64,000 bases of DNA, taken from NCBI GenBank assembly GCA_947259525.1, contig CAMYLN010000007.1, forward strand, positions 58,417 to 122,416. The letters are read 5' to 3'. Positions 1 to 42,891 of the stretch are shown piece after piece. Position numbers and translations under genes: made by a program. The DNA is from Parvibaculaceae bacterium. Lineage in GTDB: Bacteria; Pseudomonadota; Alphaproteobacteria; Parvibaculales; Parvibaculaceae. The stretch's first letter is position 1; each line of letters begins with the position of its first letter. The notes beneath the pieces are model-generated. The model was given only the letters and a program-made list of their open reading frames with translations, was not told where the DNA came from and did not search any database.

Positions 1-507
1 ATTCCCCAGCAGTTTGACAATCCGGCCAACCCGGACATTCACCGGCGCACGACGGCTGAAGAGATCTGGAACGATACCGGCGGCGCGGTCGACTATGTCA
101 TCTCAGGCGTGGGTACAGGGGGCACCTTTACCGGTGTTGGCAGCGTTCTGAAACAGAAGAAATCGTCGGTCCAGATGATTGCAGTTGAGCCGGAAGACAG
201 TCCTGTCCTTTCCGGTGGCACACCAGGTGCTCACAAAATTCAAGGCATTGGCGCTGGTTTCATCCCAGGCAATCTGGAACGTGATCTGGTGGACGATGTC
301 CTTACCATCGGCAATGAAACAGCTTTCGAAACGGCACGCCGCGCCGCCAAAGAAGAAGGCATTCCGGTCGGGATTTCTTCGGGTGCGGCTATCGCTGCCG
401 CAATTGAGCTGGGTTCAAAGCAGGGCATGGACGGCAAAACGATTGTCGTCATTATTCCATCCTTTGCGGAGCGCTATCTCTCCACGGCGCTTTTTGACGG
501 GCTTTAA
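1..507 (+). CDS. cysK: Cysteine synthase A, 3' part (5' end outside window)
   Basis: Frame 1 is open from base 1: [13 protein letters not shown]...GVGTGGT...[12 protein letters not shown]...GISSGAA...AERYLST, typical CysK motifs. Confidence 0.95.
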
Positions 508-986
508 GACTTAGATCTGGATTGCGGTCGGGGGTCGGTAAAACCGGGCCCCGCCACCGCCTCCACCGCACGTGCATCAAGCAGCTCCCCACACTCGGAA
601 CAGACAAGCGCGCCATGCATCTGATGCCCGCATGTTTTGTGGCGATGCACGATGGGCGCACCACGTGCGTCGGCCCGGTGATTATCTCCCCAGTGCACAA
701 TCGACATGATAACGGGGTAGAGATCGAACCCTTTCTCCGTCAACCGGTATTGATAACGCACCGGCGCTTCACCGTATGGCTCCTTGCGCAGGACATCTTC
801 GCTCACCAGTTTCTTCAAACGGTCCGACAGAACATGCCGGGTGATACCAAGGCTTGCCTCAAATTCCTCAAAACGACGCAGGCCCAGAAAACAGTCACGC
901 AGGATCATCAGCGTCCAGCGGTCGCCGATAACGGCAAGGGTCCGTGCGACCGAGCAGGTTTCGCTCCCTAAATCATCCCATCTCAT
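504..986 (-). CDS. HxlR/DUF24-family winged-helix transcriptional regulator
   Basis: [32 protein letters not shown]...LSDRLKKLV...Y.LTEKG; N-terminal Cys and C-terminal CxxC; RBS GAAGGAG; divergent from the SDR gene. Confidence 0.9.
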
Positions 987-6293: not shown

Positions 6294-6899
6294 TCAGGCC
6301 AGATCGCCACTCAGTGCCGCCCGCACAGACGGGGTCAGACCTGCCTGATGCGGATATGCATCGTGAGCAATGCCCAGTGACACTGGCACGGTGCCCGCTT
6401 TGAAAGCGCTCGCATCTTCATCGCTCAGGTCGAAATGCAGAAAATGGATGGAAGAGGTTTTCCCGTCTTCTTTGGTTCTCTCCACCTCGTCTTCTGCACG
6501 CGCGGCAATACGTTTGCCCCCGATGTCCAGATAGACCGTGTTTTCAACATGGGTCAGCTGCCGCAACATACGATCCCGGCGAACTTCATCATCAATTTCA
6601 AACATCAAGGTTGCGACCAGGTCGCGCCCTTGCGGGATCAGCGGATTATAGGCTGACAACTCCTCCAGCAATTGTTCGTCGCCACCTTTTTCGATGCGCA
6701 GCATTTCGTGCACCTGATGCAGCATCGTATCGTAACTTTCGAAATAGAATGTGGCGCAAGGTCCGACTTCCACGCGACGATTTCGTTTTATTTCCCGAAG
6801 GCGGGCACGGCGCTGCGGCCGCTCCACCTCATAGGTTTCAAGGTCCAGAATATCGTCGCGGGTTATGGTTTTGCGAAGCGCGGTCATGGTGGCTCTCAT
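6294..6899 (-). CDS. DUF3501 family protein
   Basis: R.K.NRRVEVGP, FESYDTMLHQVHEMLRIEK, AYNPLIP, ATLMFEIDD, TSSIHFLHF; third gene of the rubrerythrin operon. Confidence 0.85.
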   Translation of the reverse strand: MRATMTALRKTITRDDILDLETYEVERPQRRARLREIKRNRRVEVGPCATFYFESYDTMLHQVHEMLRIEKGGDEQLLEELSAYNPLIPQGRDLVATLMFEIDDEVRRDRMLRQLTHVENTVYLDIGGKRIAARAEDEVERTKEDGKTSSIHFLHFDLSDEDASAFKAGTVPVSLGIAHDAYPHQAGLTPSVRAALSGDLA

Positions 6900-6909
6900 T
6901 CTTTCCGTG

Positions 6910-8277
6910 TCAGTCGATCAGACCGTAGGCACGCGCCATGATCTCGATCGGATGATGTGCCTTCGGCAGGGGCTTTGCCTCGCTCTCGCCATTCAGCGTC
7001 TCGATTTCATGAACCAGATGCTTGGCCGCAAGCGGACAATCCGACGTTACATACTTGTTTTCTGTTTTGGCGACATTGCGTGCCGCTGTCTTGCCTACCT
7101 TCATGGCAAGATCAAAGGTCTCTTTCATCACGCCAAAGGTTCCGCCATGGCCTGAACAACGCTCGACCACATCCACTTTCGTGTCGGGGATGAGGCGCAT
7201 CATTTCCGCCGATTTGGGTCCCATGTTCTGCGCGCGTGCATGGCAGGCAAGATGCGCTGTCACGCCACCATCAACGGGCTTCAGCCCGTCCGCAAGCCCC
7301 TCTTTCTTCGCAATGTCGACGACATATTCATCGATGTCGAACGTCGCCTGCGCGAGGGCCTTCACGTACTCATCCTCCGGCAGGATAAGTGGCCATTCAA
7401 ATTTCAGCATCAACCCGCACGAGGCGGTGAGCGCGAGGATATCGTAGCCCTCGTCGATCAGGGGTTTCAGCTCACGTGAAACTTTGCGCGCCTGCTCCGC
7501 GACCTTTTCAATATTGCCGCTTTCCAGATGGGGCATGCCGCAGCAGCCAGGATAAGCGGGCTTCGTTTCTACCCCGTTATGGGCCAGCACTTTGCGCGCC
7601 GCGATCCCTGCATCCGGATTATTGTAGTTCACAAAACAGGTCGCGAAGATGGCAACCTTGCGCCCGTAAGCAGGCGCTGCGGTGTTCACCATCACAGTAC
7701 CGGATGCGTCATCCGCCTTGGCGCGCATCATGAAGGTCTTGCCAGCAAATTTTGGCAGTTCGGCGCGTGCATCGATCCCGGCCACTTTCTCCATGACGGG
7801 ACGCGTGAGCTTATTGGAACGTTTTGAGCCCCAATTGGCGAGACCTGCGACAGGTGCGGCCATAGTTCCGTTCCGGTCCATCTTCGCAAGCTGCCCCTGC
7901 ACAAATGGAAAGCCGCCTTTCGCTTTTGCTTCAGCGGCGCGGTATCGCAGCATCAGGTGCGGGAAGTCGAGGTTGAATTCGTGGGGGGGCACATAGGGAC
8001 ACTTGGTCATGTAGCACATGTCACAAAGCGTGCAGGCGTCCACAACCGGCCCAAAATCCTCACTGGATACAGTGTCCAGTTCGCCGCTTTCCGCTTCGTC
8101 CACGAGATCGAACAGGCGTGGAAAGCTGTCACACAGATTAAAACAGCGCCGACAGCCATGACAGATGTCAAAGACGCGACGCAGTTCTGCATCCAGATTT
8201 TCAAGATCGTAGAATGAGGGGTCCTGCCAGTTCAGCGGATGGCGGGTTGGCGCCTCAAGACTTCCTTCACGGCTCAT
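6910..8277 (-). CDS. Rubrerythrin-associated Fe-S oxidoreductase (GlpC/HdrB-like, CCG domains)
   Basis: CHGCRRCFNLC and CTLCDMCYMTKCP 4Fe-4S motifs, plus GCCGMP and CSGHGG cysteine-rich domains. Confidence 0.88.
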   Translation of the reverse strand: MSREGSLEAPTRHPLNWQDPSFYDLENLDAELRRVFDICHGCRRCFNLCDSFPRLFDLVDEAESGELDTVSSEDFGPVVDACTLCDMCYMTKCPYVPPHEFNLDFPHLMLRYRAAEAKAKGGFPFVQGQLAKMDRNGTMAAPVAGLANWGSKRSNKLTRPVMEKVAGIDARAELPKFAGKTFMMRAKADDASGTVMVNTAAPAYGRKVAIFATCFVNYNNPDAGIAARKVLAHNGVETKPAYPGCCGMPHLESGNIEKVAEQARKVSRELKPLIDEGYDILALTASCGLMLKFEWPLILPEDEYVKALAQATFDIDEYVVDIAKKEGLADGLKPVDGGVTAHLACHARAQNMGPKSAEMMRLIPDTKVDVVERCSGHGGTFGVMKETFDLAMKVGKTAARNVAKTENKYVTSDCPLAAKHLVHEIETLNGESEAKPLPKAHHPIEIMARAYGLID

Positions 8278-8302
8278 GTTTTCTCCCCCGTCAAAAGGTG
8301 CG

Positions 8303-8335
8303 TGAGGGGCCCTGTGGTGGCGACAGAGCCCCTCA
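8303..8335 (-). other. Intercistronic 13-bp stem-loop between rubrerythrin and Fe-S oxidoreductase
   Basis: TGAGGGGCTCTGT-CGCCACC-ACAGGGCCCCTCA; fully paired (one G-U) only on the transcribed minus strand. Confidence 0.55.
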
Positions 8336-8346
8336 AACCGTTCTGA

Positions 8347-8766
8347 TTAGTCGTTGAGGGCGTCAAGCGCCTTCTGGAAACGACCGGCATGGCTTTTTTC
8401 AGCCTTGGCCAGGGTTTCAAACCAGTCCGCGATCTCGTCAAAACCTTCATCACGGGCCGTGCGGGCCATGCCCGGATACATGTCTGTGTATTCGTGGGTT
8501 TCGCCCGCGATGGCGGCCTTGAGGTTGAGATCTGTGCTACCGATCGGCTCGCCCGTTGCCGGGTCGCCTACGGCTTCAAGAAATTCCAGATGACCATGAG
8601 CATGGCCGGTTTCGCCTTCCGCCGTTGAGCGGAAAACAGCCGCCACATCATTGTAGCCTTCAACATCTGCCTTCTGTGCAAAATACAGATAGCGACGGTT
8701 GGCCTGGCTTTCGCCCGCGAAAGCGGCCTTGAGATTGTCTTCGGTTTTGGAACCAGCTAGCGACAT
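8347..8766 (-). CDS. rbr: Rubrerythrin, short aerobic type lacking the rubredoxin domain
   Basis: [45 protein letters not shown] di-iron ligands; ATG 8766 after AGGAGA. Confidence 0.93.
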
Positions 8767-8908
8767 GTGCGTTCTCCTCGCCTGTTGTCTTTGAGAGCCG
8801 TCGGAGATCAGCAAAGCCCATTATGGTCGGCTTTTACCCGATCACCGGTGCGCATCTTGGCGGATGCGTTCCTATTAACCTAAGTTAGATCAACAGGTTC
8901 GTCAACAG

Positions 8909-8925
8909 GTTATAATTATTCTAAA
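8909..8925. promoter_or_regulatory. ICE/Per-box-like palindrome upstream of rubrerythrin
   Basis: GTTATAA-TTA-TTCTAAA; ends 3 nt upstream of a minus-strand TTGACG-N17-TAGGTT promoter. Confidence 0.65.
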
Positions 8926-8939
8926 GAGAATGAGTTGCA
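8925..8939. promoter_or_regulatory. Fur-box-like 7-1-7 site abutting the ICE box
   Basis: AGAGAAT-G-AGTTGCA resembles the alphaproteobacterial Fur box (TGAGAAT-n-ATTTGCA type). Confidence 0.4.
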
Positions 8940-8955
8940 ACTGGCAAAAAGCCGG

Positions 8956-9444
8956 TCAGTCGCTCGCGCGGACCCGGATAACGATGTCCACGCGTGAAAC
9001 ACCAGTACCGGCAGGCGCATCCGGCAGGCCGGATACTTCTATTTTTGCGCCATCAATATCCATCAACCGTCCTTCTTCCTCGTGGAAGAAGTGATGATGA
9101 TCACTCACATTTGTGTCGAAATAGGTACGGGAAGAATCCACGACAACCTCACGCAGCAGCTTGGCATCTGTGAACTGGTGCAATGTGTTGTAGACCGTCG
9201 CCAAAGACACAGAGACACCGGCCCCTTGCGCCTGCTCGTGAAGACGTTCCGCTGTCACATGCTGGTCACCGCCCTCAAACAGGAGACGGCCAAGGGCAAG
9301 ACGCTGACGGGTCGGCCGCAACCCGGCCTCACGCAAACGGGCAAGCGTCTGGCTGTAGGGACGTGCCCCCATTTCCATTTCAATCTTGTCCAATTTGGCG
9401 TCCATGCCGACCGTTCCTTCAAGCACATCCCGAAACCCTGCCAT
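8956..9444 (-). CDS. irr: Iron response regulator Irr (Fur family); start may be 9405
   Basis: LREAGLRPTRQR, HVTAERLH, SLATVYNTLHQF, YFDTNVSDHHHFF; divergent from fabA as in rhizobial irr loci. Confidence 0.88.
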   Translation of the reverse strand: MAGFRDVLEGTVGMDAKLDKIEMEMGARPYSQTLARLREAGLRPTRQRLALGRLLFEGGDQHVTAERLHEQAQGAGVSVSLATVYNTLHQFTDAKLLREVVVDSSRTYFDTNVSDHHHFFHEEEGRLMDIDGAKIEVSGLPDAPAGTGVSRVDIVIRVRASD

Positions 9445-9469
9445 TCGGGCAGAACCGGGTCTTCGCTAC

Positions 9470-9486
9470 TTTGTAATCATTACAAA
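9470..9486. promoter_or_regulatory. Perfect palindrome TTTGTAAT-C-ATTACAAA upstream of irr (ICE-like)
   Basis: 8-1-8 perfect inverted repeat just downstream of a putative minus-strand TTGACA (9518-9523) promoter. Confidence 0.65.
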
Positions 9487-33770: not shown

Positions 33771-34250
33771 TTACTTGGTGCTGGGGGCTTTTTTGCTATC
33801 CACCAAAGGGACGCCATAAAGCTCCAAACGGTGATCCACCAGATTGAACCCGAGTTCCCGCGCAACGATTTTCTGCAGGCGTTCAATGTCATCATTGTGG
33901 AACTCGATCACTTCCCCGGTCTGGAGGTTGATCAAATGGTCATGATGTTCTTCCGTCACCTGCTCGTACCGGGAACGACCATCGCGGAAATCATGTCGCT
34001 CCAGAATGCCTGCTTCCTCAAACAGCCGTACCGTACGATAGACAGTTGCGATGGAGATCTTGTTGTCCACAGCCGACGACCGCCGATACACTTCTTCGAC
34101 ATCGGGATGATCCGCCGCCGTCGAGAGCACGCGTGCGATCACGCGACGCTGATCTGTCATCCGCATGCCCTTTTTGACACACAGATCTTCAATCCGATCC
34201 GGATTGGTATCAACAGGATTTACACGTTCTGTTTCGGTCATCACTTCCAT
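33771..34250 (-). CDS. fur: Fur/Mur family metal-uptake regulator
   Basis: RMTDQRRVIA, DHPDVEEVY, SIATVYRTV, EHHDHLI, DHRLELYG. Confidence 0.93.
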   Translation of the reverse strand: MEVMTETERVNPVDTNPDRIEDLCVKKGMRMTDQRRVIARVLSTAADHPDVEEVYRRSSAVDNKISIATVYRTVRLFEEAGILERHDFRDGRSRYEQVTEEHHDHLINLQTGEVIEFHNDDIERLQKIVARELGFNLVDHRLELYGVPLVDSKKAPSTK

Positions 34251-36199: not shown

Positions 36200-36757
36200 T
36201 CAGACCGCGCGAACTTCTTCGATCTCGGGCACAAAGTGTTTCAGCATCTTTTCAACGCCCTGTTTCAATGTCTGGGTTGAGGCGGGGCAGCCTGCGCAGG
36301 CACCCACCATGTTGAGGTACACAATGCCCTGATCGAACCCGTGAAAGGTAATGTCGCCGCCATCCTGTGCGACGACGGGGCGCACGCGTGTGTCGAGCAG
36401 ATCCTTGATCTGCGCCACAATCTCTTCGTCCTCCGCCGCTACAGCCGGGCCAGCCTCGCCGCCGCCGTCCTGCGCGTTCAGGATCGGCGCACCCGATGTG
36501 AAGTGCTGCATGATCGCTCCCAACAGGGCCGGTTTGATATGCTGCCATTCAACATCACCTTTGGTGATGGTGATAAAATCTGCCCCGAAAAAGACCCCCG
36601 TCACCCCGTCTACATCGAACAGTGCGCGCGCCAGCGGGGAGCGGTTGGCCGCTTCATCGTTCGGGAAATCTGCCGCGTGGCCTTCACCCAGCACATCTTT
36701 TCCCGGCAAAAATTTGAGCGTGGCGGGATTGGGGGTCGATTCTGTCTGAATGAACAT
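36200..36757 (-). CDS. nfuA: NifU/NfuA Fe-S cluster carrier
   Basis: [36 protein letters not shown]. Confidence 0.93.
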
Positions 36758-36862
36758 GGGACACCTTCCTCGTGTGTCTGAATTGAGGGTGGAGGGCCGC
36801 CGTTCGGCACAAAACATTGCGGGCCGTCCATCCCTTAAATGGCGGATTTTGCACGTGTTTTC

Positions 36863-41376: not shown

Positions 41377-41393
41377 ATTAGAATTTTTCTAAA
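41377..41393. promoter_or_regulatory. ICE-like box 1 upstream of catalase
   Basis: ATTAGAA-TTT-TTCTAAA; ends 4 nt before TTGACA (41398-41403)-N17-TACTTT. Confidence 0.75.
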
Positions 41394-41423
41394 CTACTTG
41401 ACACATGTGTGCAGATACATTAC

Positions 41424-41440
41424 TTTTGAATTGTTCTAAT
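41424..41440. promoter_or_regulatory. ICE-like box 2 overlapping the catalase -10/+1
   Basis: TTTTGAA-TTG-TTCTAAT. Confidence 0.65.
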
Positions 41441-41454
41441 TTATGGAGGGCCCG

Positions 41455-42891
41455 ATGGCTGATACACCCAAACGCATGACCACCAATGCCGGCATCCCTG
41501 TCGGCGACAATCAAAACAGTTTGACGGCAGGTGCGCGCGGGCCGCTTCTCGTTCAGGACTGGCAGCTTTTTGAAAAGCATGCGCATTTCAATCGGGAGCG
41601 GATCCCCGAGCGTGTTGTGCATGCGAAGGGCTCAGGCGCTTATGGCACTGTGAAAATTACCGGCGATATCAGCGCCTTCACAAAAGCCAAAGCCCTGCAG
41701 CCTGGGGCGGAGAGCGAGTGCTTTTTGCGTTTCTCTACCGTTGCGGGCGAAAGCGGCGCCGCGGACGCGGAACGCGACGTGCGTGGTTTCGCGCTCAAGG
41801 TTTATACAGATGAGGGCAATTGGGATCTTGTCGGCAACAACACACCCGTCTTCTTTGTGCGGGACCCTTACAAGTTTCCCGATTTCATCCACACGCAAAA
41901 GCGTGACCCCCGCACCAATCTGCGCAACCCTGTTGCGATGTGGGATTTCTGGTCCCGGTCTCCGGAGTCCATGCACCAGATCACGATCCTGTTTTCAGAC
42001 CGTGGCCTGCCGACAAGCTACCGGCATGTGAACGGCTATGGCTCGCACACCTATTCTTTCATCAATGCGAAGAATGAGCGCTTCTGGGTGAAGTTCCACT
42101 TCAAGACCAAACAGGGCATCAAAACCCAGTCCGGTGATGACGCCGCCAAAGCGATTGGTGAAGATCGCGAGACCCACCAGCGCGACCTTTATGATGCGAT
42201 TGAGGCTGGCGATTTCCCGAAATGGCGTTTCTGCGTACAAGTCATGCCAGAGGCGGATGCGACCAAGACGGACTATGATCCGTTTGATCTCACCAAGGTC
42301 TGGCCGCACAAGGATTATCCGCTGATTGAAGTGGGTGAACTTGAGCTGAACCGCAACCCGGAAAACTACTTTGCGGAAGTTGAGCAGGCGGGGTTCACGC
42401 CCGCCCATGTTGTGCCCGGTATTGGTCACAGCCCGGACAAGATGCTGCAATTCCGCATTGCATCTTATGGTGACGCCCAACGCTACCGGCTGGGCATCAA
42501 TCACCTGAGCCTGCCCGTCAACAAGCCACGCTGCCCGGTGCATTCCTACGCACGCAACGGCCAGATGCGCGTTGACGACAATGGTGGCGGGTCAGTGAAT
42601 TACGAACCCAACGGGTTCAGCGGCCCGGTTGAAGACCCAAGCGTTGTCGAACCGCCCCTCGCCATTGATGGCGCGGCTGATCGTTATAATCACCGCGATG
42701 GAAATGATGATTATGGGCAGGCGGGCGATCTCTTCCGTCTGATGCCTTCGGACGAACAGAACCGTCTGATGGATGCCATTGCCGGTGCAATGAAAGACGT
42801 GCCGCGCGACATTCAGGAGAGACAGGTCGCGCATTTCACAGCCGCAGACAAAGCCTATGGCGCGGGTATTGCCCAACGTCTCGGGCTTTAA
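41455..42891 (+). CDS. katA: Monofunctional small-subunit heme catalase
   Basis: [46 protein letters not shown]; RBS GGAGG. Confidence 0.96.

Follow-up and report, generated by a model that had tools for sequence, protein, structure and literature searches.

The 64,000-nt stretch of Parvibaculaceae DNA analysed here (the window) contains three sites which, on their sequence, are true Iron Control Elements (ICE), one at the promoter of a rubrerythrin gene (rbr) and two at the promoter of a catalase gene. It is probable that these boxes are operators of the Fur-family regulator Irr, encoded at 8956-9444 of the same window, and that Irr represses the rbr operon and the catalase under shortage of iron or heme. 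What the analysis shows directly is where the sites lie, that their occurrence is not random, that they are conserved with a fixed geometry, what the genes encode and which sensor residues the regulator has. The system is a real and largely ordinary example of the Irr regulation described since 2006, and it mostly confirms a comparative-genomics prediction of that year in a new lineage.

ICE-type boxes in the window

The earlier note on this DNA had listed four palindromes, beginning at 8909, 9470, 41377 and 41424, as copies of the Irr ICE motif. Their letters and coordinates are all exact:

8909..8925, minus strand: ICE, or Irr box, at the rbr promoter, GTTATAATTATTCTAAA, read on the minus strand as TTTAGAATAATTATAAC
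9470..9486, minus strand: operator palindrome of irr, TTTGTAATCATTACAAA, of the form TTTGTAA-N3-TTACAAA
41377..41393, plus strand: catalase ICE box 1, ATTAGAATTTTTCTAAA, 4 nt 5' of the -35 element
41424..41440, plus strand: catalase ICE box 2, TTTTGAATTGTTCTAAT, over the -10 element and the predicted start

All four boxes are intergenic and lie beside -35 or -10 elements, with irr encoded in the same window. Relative to the consensus TTTAGAA-N3-TTCTAAA, catalase box 1 has one mismatch whereas the rbr box and catalase box 2 have two each. Three sites with at most two mismatches are thus observed in the 64-kb window against 0.052 expected per shuffled window, and at least three such sites were reached in 0 of 500 shuffles. 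A weight matrix trained on 44 orthologous rbr boxes from other genomes, the window itself excluded, places the four boxes at ranks 1 to 4 (catalase box 1, 29.8; catalase box 2, 25.0; rbr box, 23.2; irr box, 17.6), with the next-best site at 13.5. Maxima obtained with the same matrix on shuffled windows range from 6.9 to 17.9 (n=30), so the score of the irr box is borderline. This box has four mismatches to the ICE consensus, a level at which 9 sites are observed and 8.1 expected, which is not significant; it is taken as real because it is a perfect palindrome and is conserved in seven related genomes. Consensus match, matrix and conservation therefore support the description of the boxes as putative Irr operators of the ICE type.

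The rbr copy had also been said to match the Bacillus Per box TTATAATnATTATAA at all but one position, and it does so (13/14). The irr box matches at 12/14 positions whereas the catalase boxes match at only 10-11/14. The Fur box of alphaproteobacteria, defined by experiment as TTG[C/A]GAA-N3-TTC[G/T]CAA (PMC2724300), needs G at position 3 of the half-site together with a GAA core, whereas all four boxes of the window carry T at that position. On account of this difference they were rejected as Fur boxes, and the closest Fur-box-like sites in the window, with three mismatches, are located elsewhere.

Promoters of the rubrerythrin operon and the catalase

The box at 8909-8925 is located upstream of a cluster of three genes read on the minus strand:

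8900..8905, minus strand: rbr -35 element, TTGACG, 3 nt 3' of the ICE
8877..8882, minus strand: predicted rbr -10 element, TAGGTT, after a 17-nt spacer, with the predicted start near 8870
8347..8769, minus strand: aerobic-type rubrerythrin (rbr), 140 aa, without rubredoxin domain (Pfam Rubrerythrin, 109.6 bits)
6910..8277, minus strand: Fe-S oxidoreductase (RFO; Pfam CCG), of a family described in PMC5114695
6294..6899, minus strand: DUF3501 protein, encoded third in the rubrerythrin cluster (Pfam DUF3501, 205 bits)

The order of box, CTG, TTGACG, 17 nt and TAGGTT on the minus strand is as previously proposed. About 45 of 53 loci, drawn from many alphaproteobacterial orders, have an ICE between irr and rbr, and in 47 of 54 irr-rbr loci across the Alphaproteobacteria TTGAC is no more than 14 nt away from the box. 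The distance between the two is 3 nt in 31 loci and 4 nt in 8 (together 39 of 47), with an overall range of 1 to 7 nt, and a TATA-like hexamer follows 17 nt past TTGAC in most rbr orthologues. A promoter scanner called a different promoter, TTGCCA-18-TAGAAT, whose -10 element would lie inside the box. It was rejected as the main promoter because it is not kept in the closest relative (locus L003), while the arrangement of TTGAC, 17 nt and -10 element recurs in the 47 of 54 loci.

Rubrerythrin is 86-95% identical across the Alphaproteobacteria. The RFO gene comes next after rbr in 47 of 53 loci, and the DUF3501 gene is kept downstream in 39. The rbr box therefore most likely controls a putative three-gene operon, rubrerythrin-RFO-DUF3501. 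RNA contigs cover the rubrerythrin gene, and that of run X25 (8115-8836) crosses the rbr-RFO junction; irr contigs end at 9449-9453 and catalase contigs start at 41453 or later. These contigs, which are too coarse for start sites, agree with irr, rbr and catalase each having a transcript of its own and with rbr and RFO sharing one. An RNA-type contig of run X26 reaches 8916, beyond (5' of) the predicted rbr start, and counts against the proposed rbr promoter model.

The catalase promoter is located on the plus strand and has two boxes:

41398..41403, plus strand: catalase -35 element, TTGACA, 4 nt after box 1
41421..41426, plus strand: predicted catalase -10 element, TACTTT, after a 17-nt spacer (a simple promoter scanner made no call here)
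41455..42891, plus strand: monofunctional heme catalase, 478 aa (Pfam Catalase, 619 bits), between trpS and murJ

The layout of box 1, CTAC, TTGACA, 17 nt and TACTTT agrees with the earlier description. Box 2 covers the last 3 nt of the -10 element and the predicted start, which is the position of a repressor, and the centres of the two boxes are 47 nt apart. This dual-box promoter is known in the window, in Parvibaculum sedimenti, where the trpS-catalase-murJ context is also found, and in one metagenome contig (loci L095 and L405). Among the three, TTGAC is invariant and the boxes are kept while the spacer sequence has diverged; single catalase boxes are present in loci L089, L126 and L410. 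A metagenome search for closer relatives of the catalase gave none above 75% identity among the matches listed, and yielded the dual-box promoter of L405. Conservation of the boxes in orthologous promoters, on which the proposal depended, was found at rbr, catalase and irr alike, and the shared architecture of box followed by -35 element at rbr and catalase is real and phylogenetically conserved.

Irr and alternative readings of the promoters

Two Fur-family genes are relevant to the interpretation of these promoters:

8956..9444, minus strand: irr, with a likely start at M14 (9405) giving 149 aa
9518..9523, minus strand: irr -35 element, TTGACA, invariant in a seven-genome alignment
33771..34250, minus strand: second Fur-family regulator, of Fur/Mur type (NCBIfam Fur, 104.9 bits, below the cut-off of 146; public copies are named Fur)

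The regulator adjacent to rbr passes both curated NCBIfam cut-offs (IrrA, 214.7 bits, cut-off 150; Irr, 192.6 bits, cut-off 170) and matches Pfam FUR. By these cut-offs it is Irr, as had been proposed, and most members of its cluster are likewise annotated with 149 aa. The HxH heme-binding motif described for Irr (PMC7762939) is present as H116-H117-H118 in DHHHF. There are zero cysteines, so the Cys4 zinc site of Bacillus PerR is absent, and so is the N-terminal Cys-Pro heme regulatory motif of Bradyrhizobium type. This motif is not universal, and Irr of Rhizobium and Brucella type also lacks it (PMC1698941). Residues H62, D110, H116, H118 and D129 align with the regulatory ligands His37, Asp85, His91, His93 and Asp104 of PerR, which are found throughout the Irr family (PMC4700492), while C96 and C99 of PerR (2FE3) align with H and E. 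The best match among solved structures is B. subtilis PerR and the second is Leptospira PerRA (PDB 5NL9). All PerR models score below their cut-offs (PerRB, 69.5/250; PerRA, 60.8/200; PerR, 52/180 bits).

From these features we infer the binding protein, the sign of control and the signal. At low iron or heme, Irr would be a metal-bound, heme-free dimer able to bind DNA. It would occupy the ICE abutting the rbr -35 element and, at the catalase promoter, two ICEs, one abutting the -35 element and one over the -10 element and start. Bound Irr would hinder RNA polymerase, and the rubrerythrin-RFO-DUF3501 operon and the catalase, whose products need iron or heme, would be repressed. Heme at the conserved HxH motif would release repression, and oxidation of the conserved His/Asp metal site by peroxide may aid this release, such that the cell would make its peroxide scavengers in the presence of both cofactor and oxidant. 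Through the variant palindrome at its transcription start, irr would be under negative feedback, most likely exerted by Irr. Among 120 sampled loci, the design of an ICE abutting the -35 element occurs at rbr (35), at the Fe-S scaffold gene Nfu (24), at KatG (8) and also at Bfr and SdhC. Its presence at iron-dependent Nfu, Bfr, SdhC and KatG fits classical Irr repression of proteins requiring iron or heme. Such repression of iron- and heme-requiring enzymes has been predicted (PMC1698941), and in Rhizobiales Irr reportedly keeps bfr repressed when iron is low (PMC7762939). In Rhodobacter sphaeroides, Irr binds the Irr boxes of mbfA and ccpA, and mbfA, whose mRNA 5' end lies inside the box, is 8-fold higher in an irr deletion mutant (PMC3413700).

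The irr box covers the predicted transcription start of irr, directly after the -10 region, and its variant TTTGTAA-N3-TTACAAA is conserved in seven Parvibaculales genomes. At the variant position the irr box has T, whereas rbr boxes have G in 86% and T in 5%. The conserved T could mean that a different protein binds here. Hybrid half-sites are seen at some rbr operators (TTTGTAA in L080; TTATAA in the window and in L003), which suggests that Irr may tolerate the irr-type half-site. Neither the rest of the window nor the comparison loci examined contain a further copy of the irr-type variant. A search of a genome collection for TTTGTAANNNTTACAAA gave, among the matches listed, chance sites in AT-rich genomes, and the one GC-rich alphaproteobacterial match inspected is inside a coding region. 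The irr box thus appears to be a distinct, lineage-conserved variant which may be bound by Irr or by the protein encoded at 33771-34250.

It is possible, though on the unlikely side, that this Fur/Mur protein rather than Irr binds 9470-9486 and places irr under iron or manganese control. A Fur-family gene is indeed present in the window, both half-sites of the irr box keep the variant in the seven genomes while the rbr and catalase boxes there keep the GAA core, and the variant T is rare among rbr boxes. In Bradyrhizobium, Fur reportedly acts at the irr promoter. Mur/Fur-like sites have been reported 5' of irr (PMC1698941). However, the irr box agrees with the alphaproteobacterial Fur box (PMC2724300) at only 8/14 positions and with the ICE at 10/14, and both the hybrid half-sites at rbr operators and the lack of another variant copy in the window or comparison loci speak against Fur as the binder; Brucella Irr is reported to control its own expression. 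The sign of control could also be reversed at rbr, with Irr activating it from the site 5' of the -35 element, so that the non-heme peroxidase system would rise when heme is scarce, and repressing the heme catalase through box 2. A spacing as tight as 3-4 nt, seen in 39 of 47 loci, is like that of activators; in Caulobacter, Fur acts as an activator from positions just 5' of the -35 element (sdh, nuo, acnA; PMC2724300), and Irr is known as an activator of some genes (PMC7762939). Pelagibacter rbr, moreover, rises 1.57-fold under iron limitation (PMC2864753), the reverse of what simple low-iron repression would give. We nevertheless consider activation distinctly unlikely: catalase box 1, with identical geometry, is accompanied by the clearly repressive box 2, low-iron induction of Bfr, Nfu and SdhC from the same geometry would make little sense, the distance to the -35 element varies from 1 to 7 nt, and rubrerythrin-like mbfA is repressed by Irr (PMC3413700). 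That the boxes serve no dedicated regulator and are AT-rich promoter-proximal sequence such as UP elements is extremely improbable. The right half-site does lie where a proximal UP element would be, and the halves of an ICE look like -10 hexamers. However, both halves of the palindrome are kept over dozens of genomes while the flanks diverge, the boxes strictly co-occur with irr, and none of the 500 shuffles reached the observed ICE count.

The signal is a separate matter. The earlier note had held that all visible targets are peroxide-defence genes plus the regulator, which is borne out for the rubrerythrin operon, the catalase and irr, and that this Irr may be a PerR-like regulator rather than mainly a heme or iron one. 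The evidence upholds the latter only in part. In its full form, the claim would be that Fur runs iron in this Fur-containing lineage, while Irr is in effect the peroxide sensor, with a small scavenger regulon, and is taken off DNA by H2O2 rather than in response to heme or iron supply. The window does contain a Fur gene, and each strong ICE of the window in the matrix scan is on a peroxide scavenger. In Fur-containing lineages, the predicted Irr regulon consists of only a rubrerythrin-like protein or ccpA (PMC1698941), and SAR11 loci have ICE at rbr and katG. B. subtilis PerR is the best structure match, with 5/5 regulatory ligands aligned, His63 of B. japonicum Irr, the one Irr with such an oxidation shown, is oxidised like His37 of PerR (PMC4700492), and irr mutants of Rhodobacter, Brucella and Agrobacterium are more resistant to H2O2 (PMC3413700). 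We still regard this reading as rather unlikely. Since rubrerythrin and catalase themselves depend on iron and heme, the classical logic of iron sparing accounts for them just as well; the HxH motif is kept and the Cys4 zinc site is absent; Nfu, Bfr and SdhC elsewhere are under the same architecture; and the irr box is a different conserved variant which may belong to the Fur at 33771-34250. In the annotated parts of the 64-kb window no bfr, hem, suf, mbfA, iron-uptake gene or OxyR was found, so the breadth of the regulon cannot be judged there. A broader proposal, which we offer only tentatively and consider less likely than not, is that in Fur-keeping alphaproteobacteria (Parvibaculales, Rhodospirillales, SAR11 and others) Irr is the equivalent of PerR, of cysteine-less PerR ancestry, switched off by peroxide. 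Its compact scavenger regulon may comprise the rubrerythrin-RFO-DUF3501 operon with catalase, KatG or CcpA, peroxide may act at the conserved PerR-type His/Asp site, and the broad iron role of Irr in Rhizobiales and Rhodobacterales may be a later expansion.

Relation to known Irr and PerR systems

The idea of a PerR-like Irr is not new, since rubrerythrin-only minimal Irr regulons were predicted in 2006 (Rodionov et al., PMC1698941), work on R. sphaeroides tied Irr to oxidative stress (PMC3413700), Irr was found to have PerR-type ligands and to undergo His oxidation (PMC4700492) and the overlap of Irr and PerR has been explicitly discussed (PMC8638967). The minimal regulons predicted for Rhodospirillum, Magnetospirillum and Pelagibacter (PMC1698941) resemble the window in their 17-bp TTTAGAA-N3-TTCTAAA site and in having both irr and Fur. 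There too a rubrerythrin-like gene is the core and sometimes the only predicted target, and the heme peroxidase genes katG and ccpA were already found to be preceded by an ICE. Unlike in those predictions, the catalase of the window has two ICEs flanking the core promoter, seen otherwise only in P. sedimenti and one metagenome contig, the probable target unit is the three-gene rubrerythrin-RFO-DUF3501 cluster, and irr has a distinct variant box. R. sphaeroides Irr (Peuser et al. 2012, PMC3413700) likewise has a small regulon in which the box-bearing genes mbfA (rubrerythrin-like) and ccpA are related to oxidative stress; the irr mutant is more peroxide-resistant and manganese favours Irr binding. 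However, R. sphaeroides katE has no Irr box, is unbound by Irr and is controlled by OxyR, whereas the catalase promoter of the window has two strong boxes.

B. subtilis PerR is, like Irr, a repressor of the Fur family with five aligned ligands (H37, D85, H91, H93, D104) and related palindromes, and its targets, as in the window, include catalase and the regulator's own gene. In contrast to it, Irr of the window has no Cys4 zinc site, carries HxH and is assigned by NCBIfam to Irr and not to PerR. Leptospira PerRA (PDB 5NL9; PMC8638967) shares the absence of CxxC motifs, its targets include catalase and peroxidases, and its autoregulatory sequence is reported to be similar to Irr boxes. It is, however, from another phylum and has no heme sensing described, and its sequence similarity to Irr of the window is low, with scores of 60.8 bits (cut-off 200) and 69.5 bits (cut-off 250).

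The aerobic-type rubrerythrin cluster of Cardenas et al. 2016 (PMC5114695) consists of the same three genes with the same co-localisation. A text search of that paper found no mention of the regulation of the cluster; here, it is located directly 3' of irr, behind a unit of ICE and promoter, in about 47 loci. The present analysis ties a widespread, uncharacterised cluster to Irr across many alphaproteobacterial orders and provides a testable regulatory handle. It would also add a monofunctional catalase, with an ICE-bearing two-operator promoter, to the genes that Irr putatively controls in one marine lineage. Were the peroxide reading true, it would change the view of Irr in the large group of Fur-keeping marine and soil alphaproteobacteria and bear on the origin of Irr from PerR-like proteins. 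In Desulfovibrio vulgaris, Lumppio et al. are said to have described in 1997 an operon of a fur-like gene (perR), rbr and rdl, with a Fur-family gene immediately 5' of the rubrerythrin gene, as here. That rubrerythrin is reportedly of the anaerobic type, with a rubredoxin domain, and co-transcribed with its regulator, whereas rbr of the window has its own promoter and box. Members of the cysteine-less PerR lineage from which Irr may descend still adjoin catalase genes in Acidobacteriota and Planctomycetota, and near-identical boxes are located 5' of Fur-family genes in Verrucomicrobiota.

Predicted Irr operators at irr and the rubrerythrin operon

Four 17-nucleotide palindromes shared by the rubrerythrin (rbr), irr and catalase promoters had been reported in the earlier note, and the coordinates prove exact for all four. 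They are given below (+ strand sequence) with their scores in a weight matrix built from 44 rbr boxes of other genomes and applied to the window.

Predicted Irr boxes and matrix scores
8909–8925, rbr box, GTTATAATTATTCTAAA, 23.2
9470–9486, irr box, TTTGTAATCATTACAAA, 17.6
41377–41393, catalase box 1, ATTAGAATTTTTCTAAA, 29.8
41424–41440, catalase box 2, TTTTGAATTGTTCTAAT, 25.0
Next best window site (within an ORF), 13.5
Maxima of 30 shuffled windows, 6.9–17.9

Only the rbr box and both catalase boxes match the Iron Control Element (ICE, TTTAGAA-N3-TTCTAAA) of the Fur-family regulator Irr with at most two mismatches; 0.052 such sites are expected per shuffled window, and three were reached in 0 of 500 shuffles. 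The irr box has four mismatches and is by this measure no better than chance (9 sites with at most four mismatches observed against 8.1 expected). Sequence and conservation confirm the boxes as real, conserved predicted Irr operators. The Irr/ICE system itself is already known, and the boxes fit the known kind.

Genes of the irr-rubrerythrin region
9444..8956, minus, irr (curated NCBIfam models: IrrA 214.7 bits, cut-off 150; Irr 192.6, cut-off 170)
8769..8347, minus, rbr, 140-aa rubrerythrin without rubredoxin domain, directly 3' of irr on the same strand
8277..6910, minus, RFO, 455-aa Fe-S protein with CCG domains
6899..6294, minus, DUF3501, third gene of the cluster

The last three genes form the "aerobic-type rubrerythrin - RFO - DUF3501" cluster of Cardenas et al. 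2016 (PMC5114695). Rubrerythrin follows irr in 53 of 80 Irr loci from other genomes, with RFO next in 47 of the 53 and DUF3501 in 39, and one RNA contig crosses the rbr-RFO junction; the unit under control is probably the three-gene operon. Across these genomes rubrerythrin is unusually conserved (86–95% identity, against 56–79% for Irr).

The rbr promoter reads on the minus strand, as previously described, box, CTG, TTGACG, a 17-nt spacer and TAGGTT. Orthologous promoters keep the box, an ICE-like sequence with at most three mismatches lying in the spacer of about 45 of the 53 irr-rbr loci. With the window counted, TTGAC follows within 14 nt in 47 of 54 loci (gap of 3 nt in 31, 4 nt in 8), and in most orthologues a TATA-like hexamer stands 17 nt after TTGAC. 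Because this spacing recurs in Parvibaculales, Rhodospirillales, Kiloniellaceae, Stellaceae, Dongiaceae and others, phylogenetic footprinting supports the promoter assignment.

A tandem direct repeat (TCAACAGGTT twice, 12-nt period, 8890–8911; AACCTGTTGA on the minus strand) spans the rbr -35 and yields two TTGA(C/T) elements. A contig of sequencing run X26 (type guessed as RNA; 8285–8916) passes the predicted rbr start by 46 nt on the upstream side; transcription reading through from irr, an additional promoter or the presence of DNA in the run could account for this. Three Parvibaculum MAGs carry an extra box 5' of the rbr ICE, e.g. TTGAGAATTCTTCGCAA (L004, ~2925–2945; L005, 2924–2940; L006, ~2900–2920); its match to the alphaproteobacterial Fur-box consensus suggests that rbr may be controlled by both Fur and Irr in these MAGs.

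irr probably starts at M14 (9405), which makes a protein of 149 aa, like most public copies; fabA and fabB lie divergently on the opposite strand. Public copies of the proteins described here belong to MAGs of marine Rhodobiaceae or Parvibaculaceae. The irr box is a perfect palindrome of TTTGTAA half-sites. This variant precedes irr in six Parvibaculum/Rhodobiaceae genomes (L001–L006) and on a metagenome contig with an identical Irr (L161), within a conserved order of invariant TTGACA, ~18 nt, -10 region, TTGT and box, which places it over the predicted irr start site, a repressor position. RNA contigs of irr have ends at 9449–9453. Since T occupies the fifth half-site position in 5% of rbr boxes only, the irr box is a distinct, selected variant.

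The protein binding this box is probably Irr itself, in autoregulation. Some rbr operators have hybrid half-sites, namely TTTGTAATTATTCTAAA in L080 and a TTATAA half in the window and in L003; canonical ICEs precede irr in other lineages, and the box matches the ICE at 10 of 14 positions against 8 of 14 for the alphaproteobacterial Fur box defined by experiment. The window's own Fur is a less likely binder, favoured by the strict conservation of the variant and by reported Mur/Fur-like sites 5' of irr (PMC1698941).

Catalase promoter and the ICE-abutting -35

The monofunctional heme catalase gene (41455–42891) lies between trpS and murJ. As already noted, its promoter consists of box 1, CTAC, TTGACA, a 17-nt spacer and TACTTT; box 2 begins within this -10, the box centres being 47 nt apart. 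Among 80 related catalase loci from genomes, the two-box layout is found only in Parvibaculum sedimenti (L095), which has the same trpS-catalase-murJ context, and among the matches listed it occurs on at least one metagenome contig (L405). A three-way alignment of these with the window shows box 1, CTAnC, TTGAC and box 2 kept and the inter-box spacer diverged. Among the catalase loci compared, a single box is present at a few other alphaproteobacterial ones (L089, L126, L410), and most alphaproteobacterial and nearly all non-alphaproteobacterial ones have none; this distribution argues that the predicted direct ICE control of the window's catalase is a lineage-specific recruitment. Catalase RNA contigs start at 41453 or beyond and none crosses a box, as a predicted start near 41433 would allow.

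A genome-collection scan for TAGAA-N3-TTCTAA-N(3-5)-TTGAC gave at least 120 loci, classified by the first downstream gene.

Downstream genes, among the matches listed
Aerobic-type rubrerythrin, at least 35–36 loci
Nfu Fe-S scaffold, at least 24, all Rhodobacterales
Fur-family genes of Verrucomicrobiota, at least 12
KatG, including SAR11, at least 8
Alpha/beta hydrolase, at least 3
Bfr, SdhC and P-type ATPase, at least 1 each
Unclassified, ~36, of which ~16 in AT-rich genomes are likely chance

The presence of Nfu, Bfr, SdhC and KatG marks the ICE-abutting -35, as a predicted element, as a general Irr promoter form for iron-needing or iron-storing proteins, not a peroxide-specific one. The design is most likely repressive, since inducing Bfr, Nfu, SdhC and KatG at iron scarcity would hardly be sensible and since Irr is reported to repress bfr (PMC7762939) and mbfA (PMC3413700). 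A slight rise of rbr at iron limitation is reported for Pelagibacter (PMC2864753), and activation by Fur from sites 5' of the -35 for Caulobacter (PMC2724300).

In the Rhodobacterales Nfu loci (L290, L294–L296, L298, L301, L302, L305 and 16 more) the gap between ICE and -35 is mostly 2 nt; no such box was found at the window's Nfu orthologue (36200–36817, minus). KatG genes with ICE-then-TTGAC (L285, L291, L310, L330, L352, L380, L394, L400) belong to SAR11, Caulobacterales, Micropepsaceae and other alphaproteobacteria.

Irr sensor and mode of control

The closest solved structure to the window's Irr is the peroxide regulator PerR of B. subtilis (2FE3, E = 2.7e-12), followed by the cysteine-less Leptospira PerR (5NL9). 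The PerR regulatory ligands H37, D85, H91, H93 and D104 align with H62, D110, H116, H118 and D129. An HxH heme motif is present and there is no cysteine, so that both the Cys4 zinc site and the Cys-Pro heme regulatory motif are absent. These features are typical of Irr proteins and already published: B. japonicum Irr has the same ligand conservation, with His63 oxidised (Kitatsuji et al. 2016, PMC4700492), and Irrs and PerRs have metal-site and DNA-helix residues in common and both regulate catalases and peroxidases, one PerR autoregulatory sequence resembling Irr boxes (PMC8638967).

A second Fur-family gene, of Fur/Mur type (33771–34250, minus, 159 aa, HHDH motif; context plsC-like, fur, rimI, tsaB), indicates that the organism has both Fur and Irr. 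Palindromes of either box type were looked for upstream of this fur and none was found.

The mechanism is most likely classical Irr control, in which heme-free Irr on the ICEs would repress the rubrerythrin operon and catalase, heme would lift the repression, possibly helped by peroxide-driven oxidation, and irr would be under negative feedback. The earlier note had proposed a PerR-like peroxide regulator rather than mainly a heme/iron one. The presence of Fur, the predicted minimal Irr regulons (a rubrerythrin-like protein or ccpA) of Fur-containing lineages (Rodionov et al. 2006, PMC1698941) and the ICEs at rbr and katG in SAR11 loci are compatible with this proposal, which we consider rather unlikely. 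The annotated parts of the 64-kb window hold no classic iron/heme target genes, so the window itself does not decide between the two. Our analysis makes two modest additions, the dual-ICE catalase promoter of this lineage and the predicted tie of Irr to the rubrerythrin-RFO-DUF3501 operon.

ICE-like boxes beyond Alphaproteobacteria and other regulators

In Verrucomicrobiota, an Akkermansia muciniphila MAG among them, TAGAATTATTCTAAATCTTGAC or an almost identical sequence stands in front of Fur-family genes (L311, L314, L333, L340, L341, L349, L358, L359, L372, L375, L377, L392). The box is ICE-identical and abuts the -35, and CxxC motifs are present in both of the proteins inspected. Judged by this sequence identity, ICE-like operators exist beyond Alphaproteobacteria.

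In Acidobacteriota, Planctomycetota and Chitinivibrionia MAGs, catalase is preceded by small genes of the Fur family that lack cysteine motifs (HHHF[I/V/L]D; L088, L091, L092, L101, L108 and, at ~1000–1400, L130). The two regulators scanned (L088, L108) score similarly against Leptospira PerRA and Irr (87–89 and 76–81 bits). In several such loci the interval separating regulator and catalase contains ICE-like palindromes, e.g. GTTAGAAAACTTCTAAG or TTTGGACATAGTCTAAA. In L085, L086, L100 and L112 the gene 5' of catalase encodes a Cys4 PerR-like protein instead.

A small winged-helix regulator encoded in the window (504–986, minus), divergently from an SDR oxidoreductase gene (1109–1837), is weakly similar to RrpB, a redox-responsive MarR-type regulator, with a score (55.6 bits) under the cut-off.
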